Source of the DNA: Amphiscolops sp. MND2022
Lineage: Eukaryota
Direction of reading: 5' to 3'
NCBI GenBank assembly: GCA_964187785.1
Contig: OZ076409.1
Coordinates: 33,730,001 to 33,794,000 of the forward strand
Length of the DNA: 64,000 nt
The notes below the pieces were generated by a model. It worked only from the letters and a program-made list of their open reading frames with translations, had not been told where the DNA came from and did no database searches. Shown here piece by piece: positions 17,194-62,985 of the stretch. How positions within the stretch are numbered: position 1 is the stretch's first letter; every line of letters begins with the position of its first letter. The translations under genes were made by a program, and so were the position numbers.

Positions 17194-17199
17194 TATAAA

Positions 17200-17603: not shown

Positions 17604-17618
17604 GTTTATGGTTAATAA

Positions 17619-18545: not shown

Positions 18546-18582
18546 AGATTTGAAACTCTGGATAGGATTCATTGCACAGTTT

Positions 18583-19350: not shown

Positions 19351-19378
19351 TTATATAGTAAAATTCCGTAGTAAAATG

Positions 19379-19530: not shown

Positions 19531-19569
19531 ATACCACTTTCAACCCTTCTAAATTAATAAACGAACCTA

Positions 19570-20416: not shown

Positions 20417-20433
20417 TTATGCCTAAATGAATA

Positions 20434-21088: not shown

Positions 21089-21178
21089 AACTAATCACTA
21101 ATGAAATCATATTAATACTTTTTGAAGAGTGAAGCAGAGCCTTTGACTGAATAAACGAGTGAAAAATTATATCCTAGT

Positions 21179-21691: not shown

Positions 21692-21749
21692 CATTATTTA
21701 GTAAAAACAAAATCAGTATAAGTTTTAATCATGATTGTTTCTATATAAT

Positions 21750-23865: not shown

Positions 23866-24030
23866 TGAGTGAGAGTGAAACAATCCATTCAGAGAGTGAG
23901 ATCTCTGAGGATGAAACACTACATAGTTCAGATGAAGATTTTATTGATGATTTCGAATATGAAACTTCAGATTCTGAGAGCGAAGATGAAGATTATATTC
24001 CAGAAAGTAAAAAAAAAAACAAAAATTAGA
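23866..24030 (+). other. Short acidic ORF with basic tail
   Basis: MSESETIHSESEISEDETLHSSDEDFIDDFEYETSDSESEDEDYIPESKKK. Confidence 0.4.
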
Positions 24031-24065
24031 GAAAGTTGAAATTATAATTGATATTAAAATATAAA

Positions 24066-24680
24066 TCACATCTTTAAAAAATAATTAGCTTTATTCTTCT
24101 GTAAGAAATAAAATCTCATATTAATTTTGTTACCCTTTTCTAAGTTGCCTTTCGAAAGCATCGGCCTCAGATTCTTCCAATTATGACACTTTCTCATCTG
24201 ATTTTCATTGCATAAGTTAAGAGAACAAACAGGAAAAGAATGGTCGATATGCCAAACTTTACCATAATTTTCTAGAGTCATATCACCAAAGAGTTGAAAT
24301 TCGATCCAGCGTTTGAAGAACGAATAAAACATCCTAATATGTCCATTGTTTTATTGTTCTTACTTACACTCTGAGCTTTGAATGCATTGTATGTTCTTGT
24401 TCTTAAATTAGATGTTAATTTAAATATTTGATCTGTTTCTCTTCTATTTTTTTCATATTCACATCGTCTTTCACGATTTTCCTAATGATATTTTTTATTA
24501 TATTCACATCTCTGATCTCGTGTTTCATGTTAGTACATTCTATAACAGCCCTTACACCAACTACTCAATCCATCTTTACAACTCTTAAGTTTACAAAAGT
24601 TCACTTTTAGTTGTATGATTCTGCATTTGGAACAGATTTTAACTAAATCATAAGTCATCAAATTTTTAATGGTAATACTC
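24066..24680 (-). pseudogene. HNH-type (His-Me finger) endonuclease
   Basis: MTLENYGKVWHIDHSFPV..LNL....QMRKCHNWKNLRPM....NLEKGNK. The upstream part is frameshifted. Confidence 0.7.
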
Positions 24681-24738
24681 ATTTCTTTAGAATTCTTCCA
24701 TTGAAATAAAATGAATTCAATAAATCTTCATAAAGTGA

Positions 24739-27700: not shown

Positions 27701-28350
27701 GTTTGATGAGATCCATAAATGTTATGAGACATATGATAGTTTCACGTTTAAGCAGAATGAGGTTCTGGTGGATAAGCCAAAATATCTTGGATTTAGTGTA
27801 AAGGAGATGAGCAAGTTATTGATGTATGAGACGTACTATGATAAATTTCAGCCTTATTTTGGAGAAGAGAATATTCAATATCACTACGGAGATACTGATG
27901 CGATGGTGTTGAGTATTAAAACGAAAGATATTGTTGAAGACTTATATAACCTCAGAGATTTGTTTGATTTCAGCAATTTGAACAGAGAGCATAAATTGTT
28001 TAATGAAGAAAAAAAGAAAGTAGTTGGCAAATTTGAAATTGAAAAGCCTGGAAGTATTTGAATAGATGAGTTTGTTTGTTTGTTTGAGAAGTAAAGCATA
28101 TTCATATAGATGTGGAGGTGAAAGTTCTAACAAATTAAAAGGTATTTCAAAGTCTCAGAGTAAAATTTATTAGGTTCGAAGAATATTACAATAGTTGGTT
28201 TGGGGATGATTATCGAAGAGAATGTGAGAATTATATAATTAGATCTATAGATCATGAAATGTTTCTGCAAAAGGTTACAAAATATTCATTATCTGCATTT
28301 GATGAGAAGCGTTGTTATTTGAGTAACATTAAGAGTATTCCTTGGACGTA
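24739..28350 (+). pseudogene. Protein-primed family B DNA polymerase (pPolB) with N-terminal Zn finger and inserted endonuclease VII-like Zn domain
   Basis: YGDFEC (ExoI), FHNFSNYD (ExoII), RFIDS, DVVLLADVFE (ExoIII), NIRGGIS, DAKSLYG, KLLNNAFYGKT and YGDTD. Insert CWFC...VRDHCHLTGRYRGAAH. Many stops and frameshifts. Confidence 0.95.
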
Positions 28351-30620: not shown

Positions 30621-33319
30621 TATAGTAAAACATCTGAGGTTATTTGCAAAAAAAATGAGTTCTACTCAGGCGGAGGCACAAACTGCGCTAGTTCAGAAAT
30701 TTAGCGCTGTATCCGACCGACGATGTGAATTACTTCGCTAAGCAAATCTGTAAGGTAATTTAGCACATTCTGACTGCCACTAAGAGTAGGGATTAACTCA
30801 GTCTTGCAGGCCTGGTGACGTGGTCTGAAGAAGCAGGAGTACGAGTTTTCGAGATTCGAAATAAGCCAAACGTTTTCATGTTTGCAAAAACAGAAGGGAG
30901 GCTAACGTATCCCCACTTTTGGAGTTTTCCGGCACAGGACGAGTTTTGTCAGCAATTTTTCCGACTGAACTGCCCCTCGTTTGATTTTAAACAACACAAA
31001 GCGTTTTGCGAGCATAGAAGGCCACTTGTTTTTTCGGCACAATGCTTCTTACTGACGAATTTGAAATTTTACTGAAAAAGTTTTTAGTTTTTTTGTAAGG
31101 AAAACTTTTTTCTAGGGTGCACCTAATCCTAATCCAGAAATCTTAATAAATACTTGAAGAAATAGCATTGCATCAGAGAAATATTTAGCATTAATGATTC
31201 TCTATGAAACTCTAAAAGTCATGCTAAAAGTGCTTGGTAGCCTATAAAATCATGTAAAAGTTTTATGCCGTTTCAACTAGAGTGATTTAATAATTGTTTT
31301 TTTATTACTGTTAGAGTGATGAGAGTTTTCTCTGATTGTTGAAAAAAACTAGTTGTTTTGGGGTATATACGACTTTTACTTGGGAAATGTTGTCATTAGA
31401 CAAACTGTAGCCTTTCACTTTCATGAAGCTCAAAGTTCCAGTTTTGGCAGTATGAAATATCTTACGGGCAAACCTTTATAGAAAAGATGTTTTTTGTTGT
31501 TTCCAAATGGAGGAAAAATAACTTTGAAGTCTCATGCGAACCCCTCCGGATATTTTCTGACACCGTGAAAATGATCAATAATTTAACATTATTGTCCTTT
31601 GCATATACAAAACACTTGATTTGTTCGAAACTTGAGAGGGGATTTAATTTCAGTCAAACGTTTCAGAGAAGATGGCCGAAAGCGAGTCAATAACACTAAA
31701 AGCTGTAGCTAAAGAGCAATTTTGCGGATGAAAACACAAGACCACCTATTACACCTGGTAGAGCCAGCTGAGTGCTCAATAAACTAGCAAATTTTACGTT
31801 AATTATTTCCGAAAAATTGTACGGTTTTGTCATACGGTTGAAAAACGTACTGGCTCGTCAAAAATTCAAACCTTTGGGTTGATTGCAATAAACCTTTTAG
31901 AATGTAAAATTGGTAGTGAGCGTCTATTCTTCTAACGTTTTACTTTTTTTTCCAGTTCGTTTGCTTCTTCCGTTAGCTTTTTCTGCAATTTTTCAGCCTG
32001 CGGTCCTTCCAAGAAATTTTATTTTTTCAAAAGAATTTTTCGTTTCAAAACAATGCGATTTATCGGCTGAAAACATTCAGAAAAAAGCCCATGTGGCGAA
32101 TTCTGGAGAAACAAACAAGACCTGAACGTCAGAAGTCGGCGCCACCCAAGTCTCCAATATCGTAAAGTTTTAAAAATATGCTCGGGACGGTTCTTATGAA
32201 AACTCACAAAAAGTTTCAAAACACTCGAAGGTGGCCTTTAGTGTTCGGAAAACGCTCGGAAAAAAGTTCGGATATAGCGTGATGGGACAAACGGTAGCGC
32301 TTGTCTTTCAACCTACACCTCCTCCCGAGTAAATCGCAGTAATGCTCAGTTATAACGTCAAAAATTCGCATATAGCGTTTCATTCAGAATATTACGTTAA
32401 AATTTTGGATAGTATTAAGGAAGTATTTATATTGAGAAAACATAATAAACGAGAAATGAGAATTCTGAAGAGCTTCATATTGCCAAAGAATGTGAAAGAG
32501 GGGGCCCATTGGTTTTTTATTTTCCGCCCACATATAAGGGGGGAAATCATATGAAGAAACTCATGATCTGTGTTGCGTTTTTTTCCAAATTTTGCCAAAT
32601 TTCCACGGTCTACATCCACCACTACTTGACTTTTTTCATAGCTACTAGTAACTAAAATAGTCTAGTAGTAACTATTAGTAGCTAAATTATAGTAGTAAAT
32701 TATAGAAATTACTAGTAATAAATTCTGCCAAATCTCCACGATCTCAATCCACTACTTGACTATTTTCGTTACTTGACTATTTCAGTTACTATCAACCAGT
32801 AGGTTGTGGGTTCGAATCTCGCCTCCGTCTGATTTTTCTTGACAAGGCGGAAAATATTCCGGTGTTTTGCGGGCGTCTTGTTCAACATCCATTCTGTTGC
32901 AAAATAACAGAAGAAATGAAAGGCGGACCCTTTGGAGACATTAAACCTTTTCAGAGAAAAAGTTTTACAAAGTTGGAAAAAAGGGAAAGTCTCATAGTGC
33001 CAAAAAGAAGAAAGGTTGAATCTTTCTGCGTAGGAATGGTTTGCGTTTGACGTTAGAAGCTTTGGATGTGTTCAAATCCAAGTACTAAGCACTTATGGTA
33101 AAAGTGCACAGTGCACAAAAAGCGGACCATTTAGAGTGTGTACAAACAAACAAAACTTTAAAGCGTGAATCACAGTATTACTTAATTTAGGTTGAGAGGC
33201 AAAATGTGCAACATGCAAAGCGTTGGTGCCTCCTCCTTCGAGTTTTATATTTTATTGGACAAAAATTTTGGTTAAAAAAGTCGCACTGGGCTCAACTACT
33301 TCTGCAGAGATAAAAGTTA

Positions 33320-33412
33320 TAGTTGAGCGCGGGACTCAAACGTGCATACGCCTGCTTCCCAGGACGAGTAACGACACGGAGACACACACGTTGACCACTA
33401 GACTAAATGCTA
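33320..33412 (-). repeat. tRNA-derived (SINE-like) sequence; second copy at ~38382-38473
   Basis: Minus strand has an A-box-like TAGTCTAGTGG and a B-box-like GTTTGAGTCCC about 60 nt apart. No clean cloverleaf. Confidence 0.4.
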
Positions 33413-33919
33413 AGTTGTTTCCGGCTTCCATCAGCATCTTGTAACTGCAGGCAAAAAAATTGGTAAAGTTGCAGACAGCTAACTGTTTTTTGTTTCCACT
33501 GTCTTTTTACTTTTAGTTTTTTTAGTTGGAGAGGCTAAAAGACAAGGGTTGCAATTGTGAGCAGAAATCTCCAGATATAAAATCTTCTAACCTACCAAGC
33601 TACGGTACCAAATCTGCAGTCAAATGTTCAAGCTCTTCTCGAAAAGAAGGTGTCATTGGAAACCCATGTTTTCGACCTTTGCAAATCTGTGCAGATCTGT
33701 TGCACTCAATCCTGAAGAACCATACCGATCTGCAGAAACTTTACAGAAGTGTGCAATATCTCTTTAAAGATTTTTCAGAAATATGTTTCTCTGCAGGTTC
33801 TAAGGAACCAATAGACTGCATTTTTGACTTCTTCAACTATTTTATCAAGTATTTTGGCTGACCAAGGTTGACCAACTTTCCATCACCCAAAATTCTGGAG
33901 AAGAAAACTTGTCCCCATC

Positions 33920-35451
33920 TGTCGTAACCTTCATCTTCACTATAGTTGGAATCATATGAATTCTGCCTAAAGTGGGCCTCTTGGTTACTACCAATTGTAA
34001 TCAACCCAGGAAGATTTTCTGTTTTGTTTTGATCTAATTTGCGAGTTTTACTTTGCTGCCGTCCGCCTGACTCATGGTCATCAGCTTGGGGCATCTGACC
34101 TGACATATTCAGATGCCGTCCATCTGACCGAAGGTCCCATTTTGTGTTTTTAGCTCCTTCACTTGCTCCTACAGCTCCCCTAATAGTGGGCAACACCTTT
34201 TCTTCAATTGCTGCATTTAGTATCTCTACTATGTGGGAATTTAAGTCAGATTTGATTTCCTCGAATCTTCTCGACATTTGAGTGGAAATTTTTGAACTGA
34301 TTGCTCGACTTGTCTCAGCTGTAATCTCACTATTCACACTCATATTTGCATTCAGGGATAACCTGATATTTTCTCCAATAGGGTCAGTATTTTCTTGCCG
34401 TCTCCCGAACCTCAGGTCCATTTCTAAATCACTATTATTTTCTTGTTCATCTAATTCGTTTCGAACATACGTTCCTTACATAACCTCAAGGTTTTCTACA
34501 TCTGACATTATGTCTGATTGTCTTGAACGCTTTTCTTTAGCTTTCTGCTTCCTTGTAGAAGGCATCCCAGGGAGAATATCAAGTTTCAACAATGAATTGA
34601 TCAAAGAGTAGGAATTTCACAGCAAGGTTGTACGTATTGTAGTAATTATATTGAATGAATCTCAACCTTCAGTTCATCAGTATACATACCTTCACCACCA
34701 TGACACTCAATATTTAGAGTGTCACTGGTTAAAAATAGTAATGATGTCATCATTAAAATAGCAACATCCTCAACTATTGCATAATATTTGCAATAAATAG
34801 AACATAGGATGATTTGAAGCATTACGTCATTTACCCGACATTCTATAAATAGAAGCAGCAATAGACTAAAATTGTGTAATACAAGCTAACAGCAACATTT
34901 CATGCATCTGAGAGAATTATTTAACTAATTGGACCATTGGTCCATATGACTGCAGTACAGTACTAGTTCCTGCAATTTGATTGGTCGAAAGTAATTTGGA
35001 CAACGCGTCAACTTGACGTCAACACTGTACAAGTTAAACGCGTTTCCTTTACCTTTGACAGCTTACTACATTAATTGATTGAATAATAATCTAATTTTAC
35101 AAACTGCAACAGTGAACCAACTACATAATTAGGTGAGTATACTAGTTCACAATGGATAAAATAATTCATCAGAATTATTACATGCTGTTGTATGACAGTA
35201 AATATGTAGGTAAATAGTTGCCGTCGATCTGACCTTAGGTCATAGATTATAAAATCGTTGTGTATATTGGCTAAATTAAGCACCAAACTATCGTGATTAT
35301 TGATATACATGACAAAATAATAGTATTCATCAGTACGTTAGGTGAGTTTTAAGTTCTGCTCATATCGGTGGGACTCCCGGTCTGGGAACATTAAGGTCGT
35401 CTTCAGGGGTGATCTGATATAGTAGGCCATCGCAGGCGGCAGTCTGCGACA
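33920..35451 (-). mobile_element. Solo LTR (1532 bp) carrying a gag-leader-like ORF
   Basis: TGTCG...CGACA ends and 5-bp TSD CCATC (33915-19 and 35452-56). The ORF from ATG 34565 runs off the LTR end and has one premature stop in this copy. Confidence 0.88.
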
Positions 35452-37772
35452 CCATCACGTAAATTTTGGTGACCGCAGAATGTTTGGAATTGGTTATACA
35501 TTGTAGTTTATCCTTTTCACTTGAACTTTCCAGAAGTGGTCGTTGAACTTTGAGAGACTCGTTTGCCATAATGACTTTGTTTTGACGCATGAAATTTGGC
35601 ATGTGGCAACTTTCTGGGTTGGTAGATGTGCTGATAAAGTTTTGTTGTTGTAAGATTTTGGGAAGAGGGTTTATTAGATCGATTTTAGTAATTGATCGTA
35701 ACTTGGAATGCGTTATTGTATTTTATTTGTCATTGTTTGACTCAGTAAAGATCTGTAATCTCTACAGATCTGTACAGATTGCTGCAGAAAAATGTTTCAT
35801 CTTTTTAGCATAATGAGATTTCTCTCCAGTTCTAAACATTTTCGTTATTCGTTTGACATCGCTGTGGGGTTTTCAATGCGTTTCTGAGCATGACTTTTTT
35901 TCGAATCTGCACATATCTGCAAGGTTCTGCAACAATTCTGTAGATCTGCACAGGTTCGCAAAGATCGAAAACCTGGGAAGTAATTTCCTTAAGGTCACAA
36001 TGGCCTGAATGCACGCTGTTGCTTTCAATTTCGTTTTCATTCGCAAAAGGCAATTTTCATTGACCACACCAACTGAACTTGAAACATTTGATCAATGCCC
36101 TAAAGTAGCGAGTTGAAAAATATTCTAGGCTGAATTCTGACCAAAACAGGACTAATGGGTTATCCTGTACACTTTGATTGCTAAAAACGGATAATGGTTA
36201 CATTTTTTCCATTTAGGTTTTTTGTAAAAAACACAAATTTTTAGTGAACAAAACTTGGGTAAGTAGCGTGAAGAATCAGCTGTTTTTTATAAGCTTTTGA
36301 GCTACTTTTTGAGCTATATACCCACTGAAATTATAGAAAAACCGCAAAGTTTCTTTAAATTGTTTTTCTTTGGGTATATTATCTACAAAATTAATATTTC
36401 TTGTTGAAAAAATAATCTTATTAGTTCAGTGTTTCGTCCTTTCACTCCGTGTATTGTGAGTGGTACTAACAAAAAAATCAAAAAAATGCACAACAATTGA
36501 TCAAAACGGTAGGAAAGTTCAGATACCTTCTGAAAAAACATGCTTAGTAGCTAAAACGTTCGTAATTGAGCTCTGTGGAAAATCACACTCACAAAAAGAT
36601 GCAAAGACTAAATAGCATGGAACGGTCGAAAAGTTTAGCGTTTTGTTCAACTCTTCGAGCCTTAATAACTGCAATCCTAGCACTAAATTTATGCTGAAAA
36701 GATTGTCGCCTTGTTGTTTAAACCTATGGTTTTTCATATTCACGAGACAAAATCGAAGTTGTACAAACATTGTCTAACAAATTGGAATAACATTTTCTGA
36801 ACATATTTTGTGCAGTTTTTGAACACAAAACTCCTGTTTTTCTTTTAAATACGTATTGGGTAGCTAATTGTCCCAACGTTGAATTTGGAATTCTAGGTCA
36901 GGCAATTGTTCAAAGAGTGTTGGAAAAAAACAATTTATCATCAAACATTGGGTTAGGTTTTTTGAAGGTTGAATTTCGTGGAAAAAGCCCTATGTGTTGC
37001 GTATAAAATTGGAACTTAGCAAATTGAGGGGAAAGGTGGAACTGTTTGACATTTTTCTTTCCCTTTTAGAAAGAAATGAACGAAAACACTCAGGTACATA
37101 ACATACTTTTTTGAGAAGTGTGAATATTTTCTGTCGAATTTTTTGAGCAAGTTCTTGTGCATCGGGTACGCTCGAGCATTAGTTAAGCCGTTGCTGGAAT
37201 AATTCAGGGCATAAAATATCCCGTGCTCAGTGGGGGTCTTGTGTTTGTTAATTGGTCAAAACAATTTCTGAAGCTAGTGATGGTGCGCTCCAAAACATTA
37301 AATTCTACAGGCACGTTTTTCACCACACCAAGTTTTTGTGTAATAGGTACTTTTCATGGTACAGTGACAATGAAACATCTAGAAATAGACGGGTTGGCAA
37401 CCCGGGTATTCAAATAAGTGAGTGGTTTTTCTAAAAACTGCAAAAACTCAAACGAAAAAATGATCTTCAAGTTTTCAAACAGTAATTCACTTTTTTCAAT
37501 ACAGTCTATTCTTTGATGGGGTTTTGAAGTTTTCTCAAAACATGGATTTTATGAATTCATATGCTTCAGAAAAAACTTCCTCATTTATCAGTGTTTTCCT
37601 TTAAATTCATCCTCGAATGCTGACTATTTTTTGTTCCTAAGATAACGAAAAGTTTGACAATTTCAATCTGATCTCTGCTATGTACAAAAGCAAAAACAAA
37701 TCAAAGTAAAACTCTAGCGAAATTTTTGAAAAACATGACGCATTTGAAAAAAATCATGAATTTGTTGTACAC

Positions 37773-38026
37773 TTAACCGACCGGAGCTTTATGAGAATTA
37801 GGCTGCGGTTTCGTTTTCTTCGAAGGGCAACAGTTGTTTTTCATTACGGTCGAGTGGTTGAGCAACTTCTCGAATATTTCTATTAGCGAGATTGCACTGA
37901 CGCCCAACCACAGCCCCAAGAGTCCTCCAATATTACTAACCAGGGTTATGAACGTCATAAAGGGCACAATCTCAACCACCATTTGCTGTCGACTGTTTTG
38001 GTAGTGAAATGTCACGTGAGAAACGC
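37773..38026 (-). CDS. Duplicated terminal exon (TM2 and C-terminus) of the DEG/ENaC channel
   Basis: GVSHVTFHY...LVSNIGGLLGLWLGVSAISLIEIFE. Intact copy of 57822-58075 with 2 amino-acid changes. Confidence 0.8.
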
Positions 38027-38898
38027 CTTCGAACAATGATTCTCTGGTTTGGTTAGTTTCTTGACATCAACAAAGAATTGAAATTCAAAAATTTCAGAAC
38101 ATTAGAGAGAGTTATAGTTAATCAGCATCTGCTAAAATCCAAGTACTAAGCACTTATGGTAAAAGTGCACAGTGCACAAAAAGCGGACCATTTAGAGTGA
38201 GTACAAACAAACAAAACCTTAAAGCGTGAATCACAGTATTACTTAATTTAGGTTGAGAGGCAAAATGTGCAACATGCAAAGCGTTGGTGCCTCCTCCTTC
38301 GAGTTTTATATTTTATTGGACAAAAATATTGGATAAAAAAGTCGCACTGGGCTCAACTACTTCTGCAGAGATAAAAGTTATAGTTGAGCGCGGGACTCAA
38401 ACGTGCATACGCCTGCTTCCCAGGACGAGTAACAACACGAAGACACACACGTTGACCACTAGACTAAATGCTAAGTTGTTTCCGGCTTCCACCAGCATCT
38501 AGTAACTGCAGGCAAAAAAATTTGGTAAAGTTGCAGACAGCTAAATATTTTTTGTTTCCACTGTCTTTTTACTTTTAGTTTTTTAGTTGGAGAGGCTAAA
38601 AGACAAGGGTTGCAATTGTGAGCAGAAATCTCCAGATATAAAATCTTCTAACCTACTAAGCTACGGTACCAAATCTGCAGTCAAATGTTCAAGCTATTCT
38701 CGAAAAGAAGGTGTCACTGGAAACCCATGTTTCCGACCTTTGCAAATCTGTGCAGATCTGTTGCACTCAATCCTGAAGAACCATACCGATCTGCAGAAAC
38801 TTTACAGAAGTGTGCAGATTCTCTTTGAAAATTTTTGCAGAAATATGTTTCTCTGCAGGTTCTAAGGAACCAATAGACTGCTTTTTTGACTTCTTCAA

Positions 38899-39627
38899 CT
38901 ATTTTATCAAGTATTTTGGCTGACCAAGGTTGACCAACTTTCCATCACCCAAAATTCTGGAGAAGAAAACTTGTCCCCATCTGTCGTAACCTTCATCCTC
39001 ACTATAGTTGGAATCATATGAATTCTGTCTAAAGTGGGCCTCTTGGTTACTACCAATTGTAATCAACCCAGCAAGATTTTCTGTTTTGTTTTGATCTAAT
39101 TTGCGAGTTTTACTTTGCTGCCGTCCGCCTGACTCATGGTCATCAGCTTGGGGCATCTGACCTGACATATTCAGATGCCGTCCATCTGACCGAAGGTCCC
39201 ATTTGGTGTTTTTAGCTCCTTCACTTGCTCCTACAGCTCCCCTAATAGTGGGCAACACCTTTTCTTCAATTGCTGCATTTAGTATCTCTACTATGTGGGA
39301 ATTTAAGTCAGATTTGATTTCCTCAAATCTTCTCGACATTTGAGTGGAAATTTTTGAACTGATTGCTCGACTTGTCTCAGCTGTAATCTCACAATTCACA
39401 CTCATATTTGCATTCGGGGATAACCTAATACTTTCTCCAATAGGGTCAGTATTTTCTTGCCGTCTCCCGAACCTCAGGTCCATTTCTAAATCACTATTAT
39501 TTTCTTGTTCATCTAATTCGTTTCGAACATACGTTCCTAACATAATCTCAAGGTTTTCTACATCTGACATTATGTCTGATTGTCTTGAACGCTTTTCCTT
39601 AGCTTTCTGCTTCCTTGTAGAAGGCAT
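38899..39627 (-). CDS. LTR-encoded gag-leader-like ORF (MPSTRKQKAK...) reading out of the solo LTR into flanking DNA
   Basis: Open from ATG 39627. The LTR ends at ...SEDEGYD (38982), and the last ~27 codons come from the flank. Confidence 0.6.
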   Translation of the reverse strand: MPSTRKQKAKEKRSRQSDIMSDVENLEIMLGTYVRNELDEQENNSDLEMDLRFGRRQENTDPIGESIRLSPNANMSVNCEITAETSRAISSKISTQMSRRFEEIKSDLNSHIVEILNAAIEEKVLPTIRGAVGASEGAKNTKWDLRSDGRHLNMSGQMPQADDHESGGRQQSKTRKLDQNKTENLAGLITIGSNQEAHFRQNSYDSNYSEDEGYDRWGQVFFSRILGDGKLVNLGQPKYLIK

Positions 39628-40513
39628 CCCAGGGAGAATATCAAGTTTCAACAATGAATTGATCAAAGAGTAGGAATTTCACAGCAAGGTTGTACGTATT
39701 GTAGTAAATATATTGAATGAATCTCAACCTTCAGTTCATCAGTATACATACCTTCACCACCATGACACTCAATATTTAGAGTGTCACTGGTCAAAAATAG
39801 TAATGATGTCATCATTAAAATAGCAACATCCTCAACTATTGCATAATATTTACAATAAATAGAACATAGGATGATTTGAAACATTACGTCTTTTACCCGA
39901 CATTCTATAAATAGAAACAGCATTAAACTAAAATTGTGTAATACAAGCTAACAGCAACATTTCATGCATCTGAGAGAATTATTTAACTAATTGGACCATT
40001 GGTCCACATGACTGCAGTACAGTACTAGTTCCTGCAATTTGATTGGTCGAAAGTAATTTGGACAACGCGTCAACTTGACGGCAACACTGTACCAGTTAAA
40101 CGCGTTTCCTTTACCTTTGACAGCTTACTACATTAATTGATTGAATAATAATCTAATTTTACAAACTGCAACAGTGAACCAACTACATAATTAGGTGAGT
40201 ATACTAGTTCACAATGGATAAAATAAATCATCAGAATTACTACATGCTGTTGTATGAGAGTAAATATGTAGGTAAATAGTTGCCGTCGATCTGACCTTAG
40301 GTCATAGATTATAAAATCGTTGTGTATATTGGCTAAATTAAGCACCAAACTATCGTGATTATTGATATACATGACAAAATAATAGTATTCATCAGTACGT
40401 TAGGTGAGTTTTAAGTTCTGCTCATATCGGTGGGACTCCCGGTCTGGGAACATTAAGGTCGTCTTCAGGGGTGATCTGATATAGTAGGCCATCGCAGGCG
40501 GCAGTCTGCGACA
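38982..40513 (-). mobile_element. Solo LTR, second copy (via the duplication)
   Basis: TGTCG...CGACA ends and TSD CCATC at 38977-81 and 40514-18. Confidence 0.88.
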
Positions 40514-41935
40514 CCATCACGTGAATTTTGGTGACCGCAGAATGTGTGGAATTGGTTATACATTGTAGTTTATCCTTTTCACTTGAACTTTCCAGAAGTG
40601 GTCGTTGAATTTTGAGAGACTCGTTTGCCATAATGACTTTGTTTTGACGCATGAAATTTGGCATGTGGCAACTTTCTGGGTTGGTAGATGTGCTGATAAA
40701 GTTTTGTTGTTGTAAGATTTTGGGAAGAGGGTTTATTAGATCGATTTTAGTAATTGATCGTAACTTGGAATGCGTTATTGTATTTTATTTGTCATTGTTT
40801 GACTCAGTAAAGATCTGTAATCTCTACAGATCTGTACAGATTGCTGCAGAAAAATGTTTCCATCTTTTTAACATAATGAGATTTCTCTCCAGTTCTAAAC
40901 ATTTTCGTTATTCGTTTGACATCGCTGTGGGGTTTTCAATGCGTTTCTGAGCATGACTTTTTTTTCGAATCTGCACATATCTGCAAGGTTCTGCAACAAT
41001 TCTGTAGATCTGCACAGATTCGCAAAGATCGAAAACCTGGGAAGTAATTTCCTTAAGGTCACAATGGCCTGAATGCACGCTGTTGCTTTCAATTTCATTC
41101 GCAACAGGCAATTTTCATTGACCACACAACTGAACTTGAAACATTTGATCAATGCCCTAAAGTAGCGAGTTGAAAAATATTCTAGGCTGAATTCTGACCA
41201 AAACAGGACTAATGGGTTATCCTGTACACTTTGATTGCTAAAAACGGATAATGGTTACATTTTTTTCCATTTAAGTTTTTTTTTTTTAAAAAAAACTCAA
41301 ATTTTTAGTGAACAAAACTTGGGTAAGTAGCGTGAAGAATCAGCTGTTTTTTTAAGCTTTTGAGCTACTTTTTGAGCTATATACTCACTGAAATTATAGA
41401 AAAACCGCAAATTTTCTTTAAATTGTTTTTCTTTGGGTATATTATCTACAAAATTAATATTTCTTGTTGAAAAAATAATCTTATTAGTTCAGTGTTTCGT
41501 CCTTTCACTCCGTGTATTGTGAGTGGTACTAACAAAAAAATCAAAAAAATGCACAACAATTGATCAAAATGGTAGGAAAGTTCAGATACCTTCTGAAAAA
41601 ACATGCTTAGTAGCCAAAACGTTCGTAATTGAGCTCTGTGGAAAATCACACTCACAAAAAGATGCAAAGACTAAATAGCATGGAACGGTCGAAAAGTTTA
41701 GCGTTTTGTTCAACTCTTCGAGCCTTAATAACTGCAATCCTAGCAATAAATTTATGCTGAAAAGATTGCCGCTTTGTTGTTTAAACCTATGGTTTTTCAT
41801 ATTCACGAGACAAAATCGAAGTTGTACAAACATTGTCTAACAAATTGGAATAGCATTTTCTGAACATATTTTGTGCAGTTTTTGAACACAAAACTCCTAT
41901 TTTTCTTTTAAATACGTATTGGGTAGCTAATTGTC

Positions 41936-43059
41936 TGTCGGAACGACTGTCAGTACTTGTAGTTGCTGGATTCAGTCTGTTCCCTTCTCCATTAACGGAG
42001 GCAAACTGATTGGTCAGTGTAAGGACGATATTGGTAAGGTCTCCGATTTGTCTATTTATCTCATTAAATCATTGCTCAATGTTATAACTGTTACCATTTT
42101 GACGTCTAGTTAAAACGTCGTCAGAGTCAACGTCTACCATTTGGTCTCTGGATAAAAGTTCAGGGAAACTGGCTTCACTTTCGTTATCGCTTGATCTATC
42201 CATATTTCCAGTTTCTACTTGTCTATTTTGACTACTTTGAGATCTGGTAATTACCATGAGAAGTCTGGAAGTTTTAAGTTGAATTGAAATGTTTTAATGT
42301 TAAAACAAGGATTGATAACACGTAAGCAAGGTAGTAGACAACTGGTTATATCAATGGTTACAACTCGTGAGTGAGTTCGGTTTTACCCGATTGTGTGACT
42401 ATAAAGGTGTGTTAGCACCTTTCCTTTTAGCCAATGACATTCGATTTACTAATTGCTATTTAATTGCACTTGACGACTTGTGGCTACAGTCGTGACGGGT
42501 GATAATCGGCGTTTAAGTATTCATGTTTGATCTAGTATGACCGCAAGCACCAGTCATTTTAGCACGCAATTGTCTCAATTACCTCTTAAACTGAGCCTTT
42601 ACTACCATGTATCTTTATCATCATGGTGACCAATTCAATTATCGTTTGGAGGATAATTACTAAAAGGCATTGTACAAATTGCTAATATGAATGAACGAAA
42701 TGTTGTTGTTATGAATGATTGAAATTTCTGGTAATACTTTACATGTAATATAAAAAATGGATGAAGAATGATTAAATGACAAACTATCACGATAGCTGAC
42801 GACTGATTGTTTCAGTCAAATTTATGGGAATCACTTGTTGTGACTGAATATTTCAGTCTTGGTTTCTAAACGATGCACAATAACATGAATGAATTTAGTA
42901 TTGATGACTGTTAGTTCCAGTTGTTTTCCTTTCAACTGTGTTGTTCGGGGAATAAATTACTGCAATGTATTTTTATGATGATCTGTAATTTAGGGAGTTT
43001 GATGTATAAATTAATGTTTTAGAGTTCGTTTAATTCCTTCATGCTTGGCGGGCATGACA
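41936..43059 (-). repeat. 3' LTR
   Basis: Direct repeat of 55799-56921, preceded on the minus strand by the PPT. Confidence 0.95.
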
Positions 43060-43072
43060 TTCCCCCCTTTTT
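43060..43072 (-). promoter_or_regulatory. Polypurine tract
   Basis: AAAAAGGGGGGAA immediately 5' of the 3' LTR on the minus strand. Confidence 0.9.
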
Positions 43073-54597: not shown

Positions 54598-56120
54598 GGC
54601 TGGCTGGATGATCCTTCGGTGAATTCCTGTTGGTAGTAGTCGTCACTGGTTTGCTGTTGTTGGTCCCCTGGTGCAAGTTCGTTCATTTCATTTGCTGGGT
54701 AAGGGTAGTTGTGTGCTCTTCGGAAGTCGCGTCGGAAGTCCCTGTTTTCATTTGTGGTTTGCCTTTTGTATGGCACGCTTCCGTAGGCGGAGGTTTGGGG
54801 TATTCTGTAACGGCAGTCTTTTGCGGAGTGACCTCTATATCCGCAAATTTGGCAGACCAGTTTGGCATTGTATTTTGGTTGTGTTTCTGCGTTGTTATTT
54901 TGCTGTTCGGGCTTTTTCTGAGGTTGTGAGTTGTTGTTGCCCGCTGCTTCGTCACGCAGTCGTTTTCGGCACTCAGCCCATTTGTGTCCGTAAGATGCGC
55001 AGTATCTGCAGTTGCCATCGAATTTCTTTTTGATTGTTGGTCGTTCGTTTTCGTTCCTCTTCTGAACAACTGGCTTGTTTGGGACTTCTTGTGTCTGGAT
55101 AGTTTGGTTGAACGGTTGGAGGAGTTGTTGGTTTGGTAGTAACTGGGCATATTGACATCTTCTCTGGACGAATGTTTTGATGTCTTCAATGGTGGCATTG
55201 TGTTTTCCTGCAATTGCCAGTTCGTTTTGGAGCTGGATCGGTAATTTGGCAAATAGGAAGGTCTGGACAATTTCCTGTGTCTTTTCGCCGTAGGCTTGTT
55301 TGGCAATCTTTTTGTAATTGGCGAGGAAGGTACTGAATGACTCAGGGGCCGGATCGTATCGTAGCTGGTCGAATTTGAACTTCGAGACTTCTGAGAGTTC
55401 TTCCTTTGCGTATTCTTTTTTGAATGCCGTCAGTATATCTCTCAGTGTCGTTTCTGTCGTGATTGTTAGGGTTTGCCAAAACTCAACTACGTCATCTCTG
55501 AGAAGACTCCGAAAGTAGTTGAGTTTTTGTTCTTCGGTTAGTTTGTGGGCATGTGGTCGTAAGTGGTTGAGCAATAAATGCTCGAATTCATTGTATTTGT
55601 CTCGATTTCCCTTGAATAGAGGTACTTGGGTCTGCAGGATTTTTGGATGGGTCAAGGTTTCCCCCATTGTACTGCGGAGATGGTGGATTTCCGTCATCAC
55701 ATCTGCTATCTGCGGAAAACTTTCGTCACTCCTTGGTGTCACGTTGGGTGGTGTTGTTCGAGATCCTGATGGTCGTGGGTTCGAGACTCCTGTCACCATG
55801 TCGGAACGACTGTCAGTACTTGTAGTTGCTGGATTCAGTCTGTTCCCTTCTCCATTAACGGAGGCAAACTGATTGGTCAGTGTAAGGACGATATTGGTAA
55901 GGTCTCCGATTTGTCTATTTATCTCATTAAATCGTTGGTCAATGTTATAACTGTTACCATTTTGACGTCTAGTTAAAACGTCGTCAGAGTCAAGGTCTAC
56001 CATTTGGTCTCTGGATAAAAGTTCAGGGAAACTGGCTTCACTTTCGTTATCGCTTGATCTATCCATATTTTCAGTTTCTACTTGTCTATTTTGACTACTT
56101 TGAGATCTGGTAATTACCAT
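54585..56120 (-). CDS. gag: Gag with two CCHC zinc knuckles; start codon inside the 5' LTR
   Basis: 511-aa ORF with VPLFKG...KLNYF.SLLR capsid-like region, CRYCASYGHKWAEC and CQICGYRGHSAKDC. Confidence 0.93.
   Translation of the reverse strand: MVITRSQSSQNRQVETENMDRSSDNESEASFPELLSRDQMVDLDSDDVLTRRQNGNSYNIDQRFNEINRQIGDLTNIVLTLTNQFASVNGEGNRLNPATTSTDSRSDMVTGVSNPRPSGSRTTPPNVTPRSDESFPQIADVMTEIHHLRSTMGETLTHPKILQTQVPLFKGNRDKYNEFEHLLLNHLRPHAHKLTEEQKLNYFRSLLRDDVVEFWQTLTITTETTLRDILTAFKKEYAKEELSEVSKFKFDQLRYDPAPESFSTFLANYKKIAKQAYGEKTQEIVQTFLFAKLPIQLQNELAIAGKHNATIEDIKTFVQRRCQYAQLLPNQQLLQPFNQTIQTQEVPNKPVVQKRNENERPTIKKKFDGNCRYCASYGHKWAECRKRLRDEAAGNNNSQPQKKPEQQNNNAETQPKYNAKLVCQICGYRGHSAKDCRYRIPQTSAYGSVPYKRQTTNENRDFRRDFRRAHNYPYPANEMNELAPGDQQQQTSDDYYQQEFTEGSSSQPKNF
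54591..54597 (-). promoter_or_regulatory. Putative -1 ribosomal frameshift site A-AAA-AAC at the gag/pol junction
   Basis: gag ends CCA AAA AAC TTC TGA. The -1 frame is open (KLLKPRHPTDYYNNKVRNM) into pol. Confidence 0.75.
55786..55798 (-). promoter_or_regulatory. Primer-binding site (tRNA-Leu-like)
   Basis: TGGTGACAGGAGT immediately after the CA of the 5' LTR. The tRNA identity is tentative. Confidence 0.75.
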
Positions 56121-56921
56121 GAAAAGTCTGGAAGTTTTAAGTTGAATTGAAATGTTTTAATGTTAAAACAAGGATTGATAACACGTGAGCAAGGTAGTAG
56201 GCAACTGGTTATATCAATGGTTACAACTCGTGAGTGAGTTCGGTTTTACCCGATTGTGTGACTATAAAGGTGTGTTAGCACCTTTCCTTTTAGCCAATGA
56301 CATTCGATTTACTAATTGCTATTTAATTGCACTTGACGACTGGTGGCTACAGTCGTGACGGGTGATAATCGGCGTTTAAGTATTCATGTTTGATCTAGTA
56401 TGACCGCAAGCACCAGTCATTTTAGCACGCAATTGTCTCAATTACCTCTTAAACTGAGGCTTTACTACCATGTATATTTATCATCATGGTGGCCGATTAA
56501 ATTATCGTTTGGAGGATAATTACTAAAAGGCATTGTACAAATTGCTAATATGAATGAACGAAATGTTGTTGTTATGAATGATTGAATATTCTGGTAATAC
56601 TTTACATGTAATATAAAAAATGGATGAAGAATGATTAAATGACAAACTATCACGATAGCTGATGACTGATTGTTTCAGTCGTATTTATGGGAATCACTTA
56701 TGTGACTGAATATTTCAGTCTTGGTTTCTAAACGATGCACAATAACATGAATGAATTTAGTATTGATGACTGTTAGTTCCAGTTGTTTTCCTTTCAACTG
56801 TGTTGTTCGGGGAATAAATTACTGCAATGTATTTTCATGATGATCTGTAATTTAGGGAGTTTGATGTATAAATTAATGTTTTAGAGTTCGTTTAATTCCT
56901 TCATGCTTGGCGGGCATGACA
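55799..56921 (-). repeat. 5' LTR
   Basis: Direct repeat of 41936-43059, followed by the PBS. Confidence 0.95.
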
Positions 56922-57821
56922 TTGTCCCAACGTTGAATTTGGAATTCTAGGTCAGGCAATTGTTCAAAGAGTGTTGGAAAAAAACAATTTATCATCAAAC
57001 ATTGGGTTAGGTTTTTTGAAGGTTGAATTTCGTGGAAAAAGCCCTATGTGTTGCGTATAAAATTGGAACTTAGCAAATTGAGGGGAAAGGTGGAACTGTT
57101 TGACATTTTTCTTTCCCTTTTAGAGAGAAATGAACGAAAACACTCAGGTACATAACATACTTTTTTGAGAAGTGTGAATATTTTCTGTAGAATTTTTTGA
57201 GCAAGTTCTTGTGCATCGGCTACGCTCGAGCATTAGGTAAGCCGTTGCTGGAATAATTCAGGGCATAAAATATCCCGTGCTCAGTGGGGGTCTTGTGTTT
57301 GTTAATTGGTCAAAACAATTTCTGAAGCTAGTGCTGGTGCGCTCCAAAACATTAACTTCTACAGGCACGTTTTTCACCAAGTTTTTGTGTAATAGGTACT
57401 TTTCATGGTACAGTGACAGTGAAACATCTAGAAATAGACGGGTTGGCAACCCGGGTATTCAAATAGGTGAGTGGTTTTTCTAAAAACTGCAAAAACTCAA
57501 ACGAAAAAATGATCTTCAAGTTTTCAAACAGTAATTCACTTTTTTCAATACAGTCTATTCTTTGATGGGGTTTTGAACTTTTCTCAAAAGATGGATTTTA
57601 TGAATTCATATGCTTCAGAAAAAACTTCCTCGTTTATCAGTGTTTTCCTTCAAATTCATCCTCGAATGCTGACTATTTTTTGTTCCTAAGATAACGAAAA
57701 GTTTGACAATTTCAATCTGATCTCTGCTATGTACAAAAGCAAAAACAAATCAAAATAAAATTCTATTGAAATTTTTGAAAAACATGACGCATTTGAAAAA
57801 AGTCATCAATTTGTTGTCCAC

Positions 57822-59909
57822 TTAACCGACCGGAGCTTTGTGAGAATTAGGCTGCGGTTTCGTTTTCTTCGAAGGGCAACAGTTGTTTTTCATTACGGTC
57901 GCGTGGTTGAGCAACTTCTCGAATATTTCCATTAGCGAGATTGCACTGACGCCCAACCACAGCCCCAAGAGTCCTCCAATATTACTAACCAGGGTTATGA
58001 ACGTCATAAAGGGCACAATCTCAACCACCATTTGCTGTCGACTGTTTTGGTAGTGAAATGTCACGTGAGATACGCCTTCGAACCATGATTCTCTGGTTTG
58101 GTTAGTTTCTTGACTTCAACAAAGAATTGAAGTTCAAAAATTTCAGAACATTAGAGAGATTTATAGTTAGTTAATCAGCATCTGCTAAAATCTTGCATGA
58201 CTGTCATGATCTTGAGAGAGCGCTGTGCTCGGTCGCCTCAATGACGTTTACATGAAGTACTTTGAAAAAAAAATCAAAAATCTCAACTTTCCTAATAAAA
58301 CGTTTTATTAGGAAAGTTGAGATTATAATTTTCTCAGTGTTTGAGGACATTGAATAATTGGTAAAACAATGGAAAATCAATATATTGATTTTCCATTGTT
58401 TTACCAATTATTCAATGTCCTCAAACACTGAGAAACATAATATGATATTAGATCACAATAGTTGGTTTCATCTTCCTGAAAAATTCATCAAAAACAAAAA
58501 AAATTCACGATTTTTAAAGAAACTTCAGTATAATCAAGGTAATCGCTAGAGAATATGGTTGGACCTTCTTTAATGACGTCAGCTTCACCCAGAGGGTCAT
58601 CACTGTTGTTGATTCTGTTCAAGAGCATCGTTGAAATTGTAGATTTGTAATTGTACCTCAATGAAAGATCCTCAAGTACTGTTTTCATCTTGTACTTGGT
58701 GTACTTGTTTCGTTGTCTGAACACAGTCGTCTTCAAATATGTCTGTGAACATTTGCCTAAACACTTTGAAAGACACTTTTTACTCCTACTTTCAACATTT
58801 TCTGGGAAAGCTCCCAGTGTTTTCAAACATAAGCGCCTATCCAACTTCTCCAGGCATTGAGTATTTGTAAGGTTCATTCCCACAAATGGGGCACAGCTGC
58901 ATTCCTCGTAATAGGCTTCAGCGATGCATAATTTTTCACAATAGTCAGCTTTGTAAGTCACTTCAAACGGTTCTCCGGTGAAATTATAAAACTGTGGACC
59001 TCCGGGTTTTGTACATTTTGCTTTGTCGTAAGAAATTTTTTGGGTTTTGTGTTCAGTCACTGCGGAGACAGTAACAAAGTGCTTGGGTTCCAAGAAGAAG
59101 CCGTCAGAATAAGGCATGTAATCTGTTGGATGATGAAAAGTGACGTATGCTCCTTTTTGGGCAATATACTTGCCCAGTTCGATGTCAGGATCAAAGAAGA
59201 ACCCAATTTTGACCGCCCTGTTGCCTCCGTAACCTCCCAAGTCAATCTCAGCTTGGTAACAGACCATGTCACCATCTAAATGCAACTTGAAATCAGGAAT
59301 GCAGTCCTTATAATTACCGACAACATAACAGCTTCCAATGAATCTATCCACATCTAGTTTGAATTTCTCCATGATTCTAGCACTGAGAAAGAATACGTCA
59401 TTGACTGATGTCGAAACGACCCAATTTGAATCATCGAACGTGTAATTACCAGATACTGCTTGGTCCAGAAACTCATAGGAATCGTAGCTGAACTCGGTGG
59501 CATTGTAGCTAGCTATCTTCTCAGCATCCAAGAAGACACTGTTGCAAATTTTGATGATTACAGGATCTGGTTGTTCAGGTTGATCGATAAAAGTAAACGT
59601 GGTTATAGGACTACTTTCTTGGTATTCAAGACAAGTACTACGAACAAAGACTAAAGATGCACAGATACAAAAACCCCAACCAAGAGTCCAAAGCACTTGA
59701 GTGATTGAGGGAAGCTTCGTTGTTGAAAGAAAATAGTGTTTCCAGCTTTCAAGATAAGATCGTTCTTTAATTTCGTCATCCGAACAAGACTCGTTGGAGT
59801 TTTTTTCAACTCCCGAGTTGGTCCAGGCATTATCTGTCGTCAAAACTCGCATTCTCATCAACAATTGATGCGGAAATGCTCCTTGGTGTGGATGCGGTGT
59901 TATTGATGG
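57822..59909 (-). CDS. DEG/ENaC (amiloride-sensitive sodium channel / ASIC family) subunit; exons ~59909-58565 and 58075-57822
   Basis: TM1 VLWTLGWGFCICASLVFV, P.IKICNS, Cys-rich thumb (YKADYCEKLC...CSC...CLSKCLGKC), and TM2 LVSNIGGLLGLWLGVSAISLMEIFE with the GxS filter. A good acceptor ttttcaattttag at 59910 suggests an unlocated upstream exon, or translation may start at ATG 59858. Confidence 0.9.
58078..58563. mobile_element. Non-autonomous TIR element forming the DEG/ENaC intron (Introner-like)
   Basis: TIRs TCGAACCATGATTCTCTGG and revcomp TCCAACCAT-ATTCTCTAG; 3-bp TSD CCT (AGG on the coding strand) at 58075-77 and 58564-66. Confidence 0.75.
58279..58435. repeat. Two adjacent perfect palindromes (46 bp and 106 bp)
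   Basis: 58279-58324 and 58330-58435 each equal their own reverse complement. Confidence 0.95.
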
Positions 59910-61574
59910 CTAAAATTGAAAAAAAATTTAAAAACAGAATCTGGAGAACGCGCGAGTGAAAAAGATAAAGGATGGCAAGGGACCCGTGGGATATTTTCGG
60001 CCCCAAACCAAATTAGCTACGGCATTTTCGTGAGGCTTGAGAGTGACAATTTCAACATTCATTAAGAAACATAGCTTTTCAATATTGAGCGCCATTGATA
60101 TTCATACTTACAAAAACATGCGAAGTTTACCAAAAAGCATGAAACATTAAAAGCTGGACATTTCGCTCATGATTTGGCATTTCGCGTAATCTAGAAAAAC
60201 TAACGTCAGCTTCCTGTGACGTTATTTCAGAAAATGCTAAGGAGGCAAATATTAGGTTTTCGGAAATTGTGAATACTCGAAGATTGTTTCACTTCTTTTG
60301 TACATATAAAGGCTTTTGCAATATTACTCCTTTCTTCAAAAAGGTCTTCTAAATCATTTTTTTAAAATTGAACTCCGTAGTAGCAACTGTTGCTACCCAT
60401 GAAAATAATCATAAACTAAATAATTATCCCAAAAACATGTTCTTCAATTTTTGCAATTAAGCAGCTTTTCTTGCGCTGTTTTCGATTACTTTCAAAAAAC
60501 AAAATATCCAGAGTTACACCATTATCCGAGAAGTTTTTCCATAAGCTTTTCAAAAGAGATCAATTCGTGTTGTCTGCCAAAATTTTGCAGTGATTTTCGC
60601 AAAGTCTTCCCCACGAAAACACTAGAAAGAAACATCAAATGTATCATCTATAATATCACTTGTATCATCTGTAATATCAATTGTATGATTTACTTCCTTT
60701 TGTTTTATTTTTGGACACAGATTTTCAAGTGTTTATTCTAATTAATGCGATTAACTAACTTCCCACAATTACACTCAACTTTAGCATTATAACATGACAT
60801 ACATTTTTTAGTCGGCGCTTTTCTAGTGAAAAGAGCCCGACTATTACAGTGGCTAGGTTTTTTTCTTTTTGTTTCTTCAGCGTGAACAAACAATCTCACT
60901 GTGATTCGTCCACTTTTCTTACAATCGAAACTACTAGAACTACTACCATAAGGCCAAATCCGGTCAGCGGAAACTAGTGCAAAAGGGTCCCCCCTTCCAA
61001 TTTTTACCTTTTTAACGTAACCTACAAAACCTGACGAGACTAAAGGGTCCTTTTACCTTTTTCGGCACTATGCTACATTTTCTGAAAGAAACAAATTCAA
61101 AAATTTCAGTTTTTTTTTCAAAAAAAGTCTTGCGCTTTTTGAGCCTTAAATATAGCGCCGAATTTAGACGTTCCCGTCTTGTTATAAACCTCACCCGTGT
61201 TTGGGTAAGTACAAAAAGGCAGTCGGTGGTAATAATTTTAAACACTCTTTGCATGAATCATTATGTTCACCATCATCACAACTTAGACAATTTTATTCTT
61301 TGAAAATTCATTTTTTCATATAGTTTTTATTGTTTTGAAAATTCATTTACTTATATAGCTTTCTATAGATACTCTGTAAAGTATAAAGTATAGGGACTTT
61401 TTAACTAGTGATAAAAAAACTGTTGAAGTAGTTAAAAAATACTTAAATAGTAGTATAAAAATCATTGAGGAAATAGCGAAATTGCTAACTGTTAACAATA
61501 CAATTTAGTACAACATATAATAGCAATTTAATCAGCATCAGAGATTCCTTATTGAGAAAAATCGAATTTAATAT

Positions 61575-62985
61575 ATGATTGAAAACAAAAAAGAAATTGC
61601 TATAGAAATATTCTTTCCAGTAATTAAAAACTTTGAAGGCATCCAAATACAAACTCACTATAAAGATGAGTGTTGGAGTATTGATCTCACTGATAAAACA
61701 AAATTGGCAAAATACAACAAAAACTACAATTCCACTTTTACAGTAATTGATAACCACACTAAATATGCATAGGCCATTCCTCTTAAAGACAAATCCAGAA
61801 AAAGTACAACAAATGCATTCAAGAAACTTATTGAAAAAGAAAGAAGAAAACCTGATAAACTTTGATCCGATTGAGGTAAAGAGTTTTATAATGAAACTTT
61901 TTAAAATTTCCTAAATTTAAAATTTTCAAATTGAACAAAACATTCAAATTTATTGAACGAATTCAGATTCGAAAGCTGTTTTTGTTGAACGATTCAATGG
62001 AACACGTTTGGACTTACTCAAAGACCCGATGTATATTGAAGGTTATGCGTGTTGGCTGAATAACTTAGGAAATGGATTAGAAAAGTATAATATTCGTGTC
62101 CATGGCACTACCAAAATGACACCTTTCGAAATGTCAACTAATCAAAAACTAATACCTACTTTGAAACCTAGCAGTAATAATAACAAACAACCAAACATCC
62201 AGGTGGGAGATGTCGTAAAAGTTTTCGATAAACGTACACTATACAGTAGGGGTTACACATTTAATTGGAATGGAGAACTATTTAAAAAACACAGCATCAT
62301 TATTACAAGTCCAGTGACCGTTGCTCTAGAAGATGAAAATGAAGAAATTATTCAAGGAAAATATTATGGTCAAGAACTTTTAGAAGTGTATTTGATTTTA
62401 AATCTTATTCTAAAACACTAGAAAATATGAATTTTTTTCCATTAATTAGAGTAATTTGTTTTATCATAAATGGATTCTATGTTTTCTTTGAAAAATTAAT
62501 ATGCTGTTGATAAACATTTTCAAAAAATTCATTCTATAAAATATAATCCAAATAGCTTATCGCCAATCAATAATAAAAATTCAAATATGCCGGTAACTTT
62601 GCCAAGAGAAGACGCTTATGTTTGTTTACAAAACTCCTATATATCAATAGATTTTGAAGTAGTAAAAGATGCTGATAATACGAGATACGCCGATTTCGAT
62701 GAAATAGCCCTATTTAATTTTGGATCTGTTGCCCTTTTTTAGCGAGGCTAAGCTGACAACTAGTTTAGGGAAACACTTGGAAAAATTGACAACCTGCATA
62801 TTTTAATTATAATGCATAAAACGTTAACTTCTCGCAAACAGACAAGTGAACAGATGAGTGGGTTTGAAGAATTGATTGCTGTCAGTAGACAAGAACAAAC
62901 AAACAATAAGACAGAGTAAGGAACCTTTTTTTGCTAAAATTAAACTGAGTGACGTGTTTGGAATTGCTGATCAAGAAAAAACATA
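61575..62985 (+). mobile_element. Fragment of a second Polinton: integrase followed directly by the 5' part of the major capsid gene
   Basis: IQTHYKDECWSIDL...VIDNHTKYA, VFVERFNGT and IQGKYYGQELL; then LPREDAYVCLQNSYISIDFEV...GIADQEK. Homologous to 19570-20416 and 21750-22250. Confidence 0.88.

Follow-up and report, generated by a model that had tools for sequence, protein, structure and literature searches.

A predicted 489-nt intron in an acoel DEG/ENaC gene, its probable origin from a Merlin-type transposon and signs of wider intron birth from DNA transposons

The locus

The window, meaning the whole 64,000-nt stretch that was analysed (Amphiscolops sp. MND2022, GCA_964187785.1, contig OZ076409.1, positions 33,730,001 to 33,794,000), carries a DEG/ENaC (ASC) gene in which two coding exons are separated by a predicted intron of 489 nt. 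In window coordinates, the features are:

58565..59858, minus strand: coding exon 1 of the DEG/ENaC (ASC) gene, 431 codons and the first G of Gly432 (the 5' bound is that of the open frame)
58562..58568, minus strand: putative 5' target copy, GAAGGTC, with the AG|GT donor (from the sequence and a related family's target preference GA...TC)
58548..58561, minus strand: CAACCATATTCTCT, probable 5' terminal inverted repeat of an eroded Merlin-type element (p 0.015 versus random DNA with the family end matrix)
58076..58564, minus strand: predicted phase-1 GT-AG intron, 489 nt (best junction among those tested)
58330..58435, no strand: perfect 106-bp palindrome (53+53), single copy in the 1.07-Gb genome
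58279..58324, no strand: perfect 46-bp palindrome (23+23)
58101..58106, minus strand: branch-point-like ACTAAC; 25 nt separate it from the acceptor, and the tandem copy has it unaltered
58080..58094, minus strand: AGAGAATCATGGTTC, probable 3' terminal inverted repeat (p 0.0003 with the family end matrix; predicted fold)
58073..58079, minus strand: putative 3' target copy, GAAGGCG, with the AG|G acceptor (5/7 identical to the 5' copy)
57822..58075, minus strand: coding exon 2, second transmembrane helix and stop codon, 84 codons
36867..38139, minus strand: incomplete tandem duplicate, containing ~115 nt from the intron's 3' end followed by exon 2 and the sequence beyond it (1277 nt at 97% identity)

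Both exons match the profile PF00858, exon 1 with E 3.4e-21 and exon 2 with E 1.9e-10 at profile positions 406-454. Reading through the insert meets a stop after 456 residues and gives a product without the second transmembrane helix; taking out 58564-58076 (489 nt, GT..AG, phase 1) gives, by computed joining, a 515-aa frame that reads K-E-G-V-S-H across the junction, as an earlier note on this DNA had predicted. Set against the features of U2 introns, the insert has GT..AG borders, a branch-like motif (ACTAAC at 58106-58101, then 25 nt to the acceptor) and exact frame restoration, while its donor, GTCCAA, is weak and a pyrimidine tract is absent, and on motif, donor and missing tract the note had read the sequence correctly. 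AGG does stand at both junctions (minus strand 58566-58564 and 58077-58075), but the direct repeat there is GAAGG, 5 bp rather than the 3 bp first proposed. Similarly, the inverted ends, put at ~18 bp, are 16 and 17 nt long with 15 matches, one mismatch and one indel, and the length of 486 nt holds for the whole insert between the AGG copies, not for the spacer between the inverted arms.

The pairing of the inverted ends exceeds chance: equal pairing was reached in 1 of 74 cross-pairings of other introns' ends and an equally high score in 1 of 232 of a larger set, and the terminal stem is present in both the MFE and the centroid fold. Two AG dinucleotides that stand between the branch-like motif and the acceptor fall within the 3' inverted repeat. 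Splicing could instead use an in-frame AG located 15 nt 5' of the acceptor, which would lengthen the protein by five residues. Branch-like CTRAY motifs are weakly commoner near the acceptors of predicted introns in this genome (16/117 introns, versus 8 in a control window). The 46-bp and 106-bp palindromes (58279-58435), on which the earlier note is silent, are adjacent and without a mismatch, and the larger is likely to be a later event.

The gene has also been touched by a tandem duplication of ~5 kb (33066-38139 versus 38127-41935 plus 56921-58192), one breakpoint of which lies inside the 489-nt intron, and a Gypsy-like element with 1.1-kb repeats (41936-43061, 55799-56923) sits inside the second copy. 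A match at 38011-38139 was considered as a second insertion and rejected, being the tandem duplicate. The intron must predate this event (~1.7% pairwise divergence), since its 3' end was included in the copied DNA. Exon 2 and its tandem copy differ by two silent and two replacement changes, which are uninformative. Elsewhere in the window, two AT-rich stretches (13987-28061 and 61485-62983) contain open frames that by eye resemble DNA polymerase B, packaging ATPase and integrase, and are by eye a Maverick/Polinton-type candidate.

Origin of the insert

The earlier note had proposed an intron-generating family of elements with TC[CG]AACCAT inverted ends and 3-bp AGG duplications. A genome search found the exact pattern only at the insert's own two ends, but a looser end search (256 matches versus 87 in the control) led to a MITE family with the end G[AG]ACCATGTTTCT[CT]AT (494 exact ends versus 0 in the control). 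This related family begins G[AG]ACCATG and makes 8-bp duplications, which are 7-8/8 identical in 14 of 16 paired copies that had been pre-chosen at duplication identity of 6/8 or better. It prefers targets of the form GA....TC (TC in 9 of 28 distinct flanks, p 2.6e-5), and this preference explains the outer TC/GA pair that had been counted as part of the inverted repeats. Since the pair is likely target DNA, including the T of the donor that had been assigned to the element, the likely source of both splice sites is a duplication of 7-8 bp, now eroded, rather than one of 3 bp. The transposase-bearing partners of the family are Merlin elements. The genome holds 42 Merlin-transposase matches, and of the 30 loci examined 6 lie in elements that end in GGACCATG and are flanked by 7-8/8 duplications; this end is common to the MITE family and the DDE_Tnp_IS1595 elements of the genome.

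An end matrix built from 15 copies (L082 was left out as a false pair) was used to rank 117 predicted introns. The intron of the ENaC paralog L046 comes first at 29.2, that of L225 second at 20.3 and the 489-nt intron third at 15.0; the next scores -1.0 and the median is -21, and two or three of the 117 introns carry the family end. A profile from 16 copies matches the L046 intron end to end (E 7e-4), and this intron is a full-length member with a 7/8 duplication, which bears out the expectation of an intron-generating MITE family in the genome. The same profile has no match to the interior of the 489-nt intron. Likewise, the genome search found no close copy of the insert apart from the tandem duplicate, and no other element in the genome has its exact right-hand end. 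The left end matches the family modestly (p 0.015) and requires a gap, and the two ends start CA and GA, where the definition of Merlin has 5'-GG. The target copies, GAAGGTC and GAAGGCG, are spaced in register at 7 bp and are 5/7 identical; the difference from the family's 8 bp calls for either the loss of 1 nt or a duplication of 7 bp. The eroded ends and vanished copies indicate that the insert is old.

Two other end motifs led elsewhere. The enrichment of AGGTCGAACCATG (611 versus 152 in the control) mostly reflects an unrelated repeat with shared flanks, and an exact partner end was found at 1 of 30 such loci, the 489-nt intron alone; the L047 end motif (18 matches) is mostly internal to another repeat, and no element family emerged for that intron. 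We also observed Merlin elements nested in CAG-ended elements with 8-bp duplications (L313 and L315; G000 C9:50347130 and C5:71302707).

Taken together, these results make it likely that a transposon gave rise to the insert and that its target duplication provided the splice sites, and we put at about 0.7 the probability that the insert is the eroded remnant of a Merlin-type transposon whose target duplication supplies the GT donor and the AG acceptor, with predicted splicing restoring the frame. A target containing AG|GT would have been duplicated on insertion; the 5' copy of the duplication would then serve as donor and the 3' copy as acceptor, and splicing would remove the element together with one copy. 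With the gene kept under selection, the insert would be spliced, and the paired ends may hide the two upstream AGs and bring the weak sites together.

The strongest alternative, though an unlikely one, retains a transposon and assigns it to a separate, now vanished MITE family with TC[CG]AACCAT ends and a 3-bp AGG duplication, the donor being formed by the G of the duplication and the T of the element. This geometry needs no indel, AGG is perfectly repeated, TC/GA extend the inverted ends, and the L225 intron has the same 3+4 offset, perhaps the mark of a subfamily whose duplications are shorter. Against this, no other element with such ends exists in the genome, none of 20 near-match loci examined from the looser end search had an AGG-flanked pair, the related family makes 8-bp duplications in flanks preferentially ending TC, and the junction repeat exceeds 3 bp. 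We consider less probable still an origin without a transposon, in which local DNA was copied during double-strand-break repair or template switching and a short direct repeat remained, with the inverted ends as a by-product or a later-selected RNA stem. The two perfect, apparently unique palindromes, the duplication breakpoint inside the intron and the interior without a family match are all compatible with such repair; however, a known family end is matched on either side, at offsets that are nearly symmetric (p 0.015 and 0.0003), and intact Merlin and hAT ends have matches in further introns of this genome.

The earlier note had suggested looking for copies at AGG sites inside genes. Well-kept family copies at AGG sites gave 34 matches, and none of the 30 examined lies convincingly in a coding exon. 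On these copies the family is probably an ordinary MITE that sometimes leaves introns, and not a gene-seeking Introner.

Intron gain and predicted splicing

DEG/ENaC genes form a large family in this genome, with 97 matches, many of which are long open frames; the expansion is mostly intronless. The closest paralogs of the gene, L006 and L007, have no intron, and L008 and L009 have introns at other positions. The sister protein P0002 (99/99) reads K-E-G-L-S-H without a break, P0003 to P0006 are also uninterrupted at the insert site, and the position is unique among 38 ENaC introns (30 positions in all). On this protein comparison the site is shown to be uninterrupted in the sister protein and other clade members, and the absence of the intron from paralogs and relatives, for which the earlier note had called, indicates a lineage-specific gain. 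P0002 has an apparent intron of its own about six codons downstream of the site, where its read-through departs from the family alignment after H-V-T-F.

An allele on another contig, P0132, also carries the insert. None of 431 exon residues differs between the alleles, whereas the insert read-through has 3 of 25 residues changed and then a frameshift (exon versus insert p 1.5e-4). The exon is thus constrained while the insert drifts, and since both alleles bear the insert, it is likely, on comparison of the two sequences, to be spliced out of the mRNA. In simulated neutral decay that counts stops only, the probability of an intact frame is 0.57 at 0.9% divergence and 0.016 at 6.7%; with frameshifts, 0.07 of the frames survive at 0.9% and 0/5000 at 3% or more, under an indel rate that comes from non-coding DNA and is likely too high. 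On this model, the absence of stop codons alone is weak evidence for splicing. That the insertion broke the gene and left a young pseudogene with an unspliced or poorly spliced insert is the least probable reading, since the weak donor, the missing pyrimidine tract, the large redundant family (97 matches) and a stops-only decay compatible with a young pseudogene stand against exon constraint between alleles that both contain the insert and against 515 codons intact despite its age.

Predicted introns across the genome

The sample of 117 introns, all predicted by homology with junction finders that favoured or required G..AG, consists of 38 from ENaC genes and 79 from tubulin and HSP70 genes. 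Two near-duplicates, one skipped-exon junction and two exon pairs without a GT/GC candidate were left out of the ENaC set; five introns that were not G..AG or were too short, the introns of two near-identical loci and one from a duplicated exon were left out of the tubulin/HSP70 set. When GA and GG were admitted as donors, 11 ENaC junctions shifted, and 10 of these were kept. The predicted donors are GT in 93, GC in 9, GG in 9 and GA in 6. AG precedes the donor in 24/24 non-GT introns versus 58/93 GT introns. Own inverted ends, called where an intron's own-end repeat falls in the top 2% of cross-pairs, are found in 25/117, about a fifth of the sample, and are distributed by donor class as 3/63 consensus, 7/30 weak-GT and 15/24 GC/GG/GA introns (Fisher p 2e-6; 0/100000 permutations). 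In an all-versus-all blastn of the 117 introns, end-anchored similarity was found only between paralogous introns, except for one 41-nt patch.

Among the 79 tubulin/HSP70 introns, non-GT donors occur at 8/36 unique versus 0/43 shared positions; introns with inverted ends show no clear difference between the classes (2/43 shared versus 5/36 unique, p 0.24). In 8/8 non-GT tubulin introns the chosen junction falls short of the top-scoring junction by no more than 1 point, and a switch to GT-AG would require indels in the tubulin core. P0235, a likely ortholog of L219 (75-97% by exon), has the same unusual E-Q-H at the GG junction. We looked for a transcript-derived protein of the species across a GG junction and found none. 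Intronless tubulin, HSP70 and HSP110 copies occur alongside intron-rich paralogs, which suggests intron loss or retroposition, followed by regain. One such HSP110 shares 71% and 70% identity with proteins of Convolutriloba and Symsagittifera, versus at most 46% with the remaining named matches listed, in line with a likely acoel source.

Two geometries recur. In the first, the duplication itself contains AG|G, with offsets that add up to 8 (L046, L180, L043, L047, L008 and L054). The second is represented by 12 introns, spread over 10 positions, whose 5' border reads CAG|G[GA]A; this hAT-like end would supply a GG or GA donor. A complementary end lies 9-19 nt before the acceptor in 10 of the 12 versus 2.7% of control comparisons, and four of them have it at exactly 11 nt, the sum of 8 bp and NAG. 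The genome contains intact hAT elements that end in TAGGGATG and TAGGGTTTGAC and have 7-8/8 duplications (20 loci examined of 150 matches), as well as an element with CAGGGATGTTCAAA ends and a 7-8/8 duplication. In the hAT geometry the donor would be provided by the terminus of the element itself, CAG|G[GA]A; the element's terminal CAG would stay in the exon and replace the NAG used as acceptor, and this swap would leave the length unchanged.

Introns with different transposon-like ends also share codon and phase: at ENaC profile position 241.1 the introns of L043, L046, L050 and L051 are unrelated, and the same holds for transposon-like ends at ENaC 283.1 (L047, L054) and alpha-tubulin 219.0 (L182, L246). 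Such unrelated introns at the same position in different paralogs are likely parallel gains. Judged from intron ends and predicted junctions, widespread intron birth from DNA transposons in this acoel is likely, and the 489-nt intron would be one case of a predicted genome-wide conversion of Merlin and hAT elements into introns.

End pairing, U1 and donor choice

U1 snRNA is present, and its base that pairs with +2 is unchanged in 20/20 copies read. A U1 variant as the cause of GC, GA and GG donors was therefore rejected, as no such variant occurs among these copies, and the use of these donors is unexplained by U1. The donor may instead be chosen by pairing to the exonic AG|G plus the stem. 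Separately, U1 variants starting ATACTAACCTG were observed (L261, L267 and L268, also L255 and L262; G000 C7:41278652, C3:20401118 and C3:20847387), which would pair perfectly with GTTAGT donors, very common in the genome's older introns.

Paralogous introns bear on the stem. Those of L040 and L041 have a conserved stem region and a sharply diverged interior, and in the stem of L052 and L053 a single pair is altered in both arms, another in one arm, and two no longer pair. Together with the predicted fold, these comparisons are no more than suggestive of a terminal stem kept for splicing, and end pairing may plausibly play a role in splicing.

Discussion

Introners with terminal inverted repeats that co-opt both splice sites from the target are a described class, known from Florenciella (PMC9860276, PMC12130899), and hAT Introner families with 8-bp duplications have been reported from Panicum and Styela (PMC12130899 supplement 8). 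GC and GA donors occur among Introners (PMC9860276, PMC12130899), which Gozashti et al. 2022 (PMC9860276) found in only two animal groups, a sea urchin being added in 2025 (PMC12130899). As in these systems, a non-autonomous TIR element would here become an intron with the mRNA length unchanged. The description of the insert as Introner-like holds in part: the 489-nt intron stands at a newly gained position, and the element spans the whole intron with its TIR and putative target duplication at the predicted splice sites, but similar introns were not found at several non-homologous positions. Introners are defined by end-to-end similarity, whereas different-position introns here share only short end motifs; the acoel introns further differ in coming from several superfamilies and in that most well-kept copies lie outside exons. 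Screens based on similarity would therefore miss them. The acoel genera that we searched for are absent from the 8,716-genome Introner screen as presented in PMC12130899 and its supplements 1-13.

Merlin (IS1016-like) elements are defined by 5'-GG ends and 8-9 bp duplications (PMC8101967). The MITE family resembles them in its 5'-GG ends, 8-bp duplications and GGACCATG end, and the 489-nt copy departs from them: it is eroded and non-autonomous, its target copies are spaced at 7 bp, and its interior lacks a family match. The available portion of PMC8101967 makes no mention of intron formation by Merlin, and in the table of PMC12130899 the name appears only as a terminus match, for one Symbiodinium family classed as Unknown with three occurrences. 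MITE-derived non-canonical introns are known from Fritillaria borealis, Amoebophrya, Polarella and euglenids, where canonical introns occupy old positions and unusual borders with TIR and TSD occur at lineage-specific positions, and terminal pairing has been proposed for euglenids (PMC11282704). The split between canonical old and non-canonical new introns is shared with Fritillaria and the dinoflagellates; unlike those MITE-derived introns, the acoel introns kept have an AG acceptor and G as first base, and only +2 varies.

In maize, Giroux and colleagues reportedly described in 1994 a Ds (hAT) element removed as an intron via sites in its 8-bp target duplication. The likeness to Ds lies in donor and acceptor both coming from the duplicated target and in the exact restoration; Ds is a single laboratory allele, whereas the acoel introns are fixed natural introns at many loci.

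Among acoels and their relatives, the Praesagittifera genome paper reports that no introns made only of transposable elements were found (PMC6451197), and the accessible text of the Symsagittifera and Xenoturbella genome papers holds nothing on introns made by such elements. Our literature search, mostly at title level, found no report of acoel non-canonical or transposon-derived introns. The 489-nt intron alone is a known kind of event; new are the acoel setting, the Merlin link, the predicted GG/GA donors from hAT ends and the old, multi-family pattern.

The wider proposal is that the spliceosome of the acoel lineage takes any donor that starts with G (GT, GC, GA or GG) after an exonic AG when inverted ends pair, that Merlin and hAT elements have long been making introns genome-wide, one route being a hAT end CAG|G[GA]A as donor with a NAG just beyond the 3' duplication as acceptor, a length-neutral exchange, and that the stems are selected as splicing signals; we give this whole an even chance of being right. 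One practical consequence is that gene finders limited to GT and GC would mis-model such genes, given that 10/38 ENaC junctions moved once GA and GG were allowed. Introner screens have detected intron-making transposons in just a few animal groups, and they pick up only recent, look-alike copies. The present results suggest that the ends of an individual intron can reveal old gain driven by transposons, and such a test suits any genome. The predicted GG and GA donors would offer a test of +2 relaxation in an animal spliceosome with an ordinary U1, and the same introns would allow a test of whether an RNA stem may substitute for the donor consensus and the pyrimidine tract.
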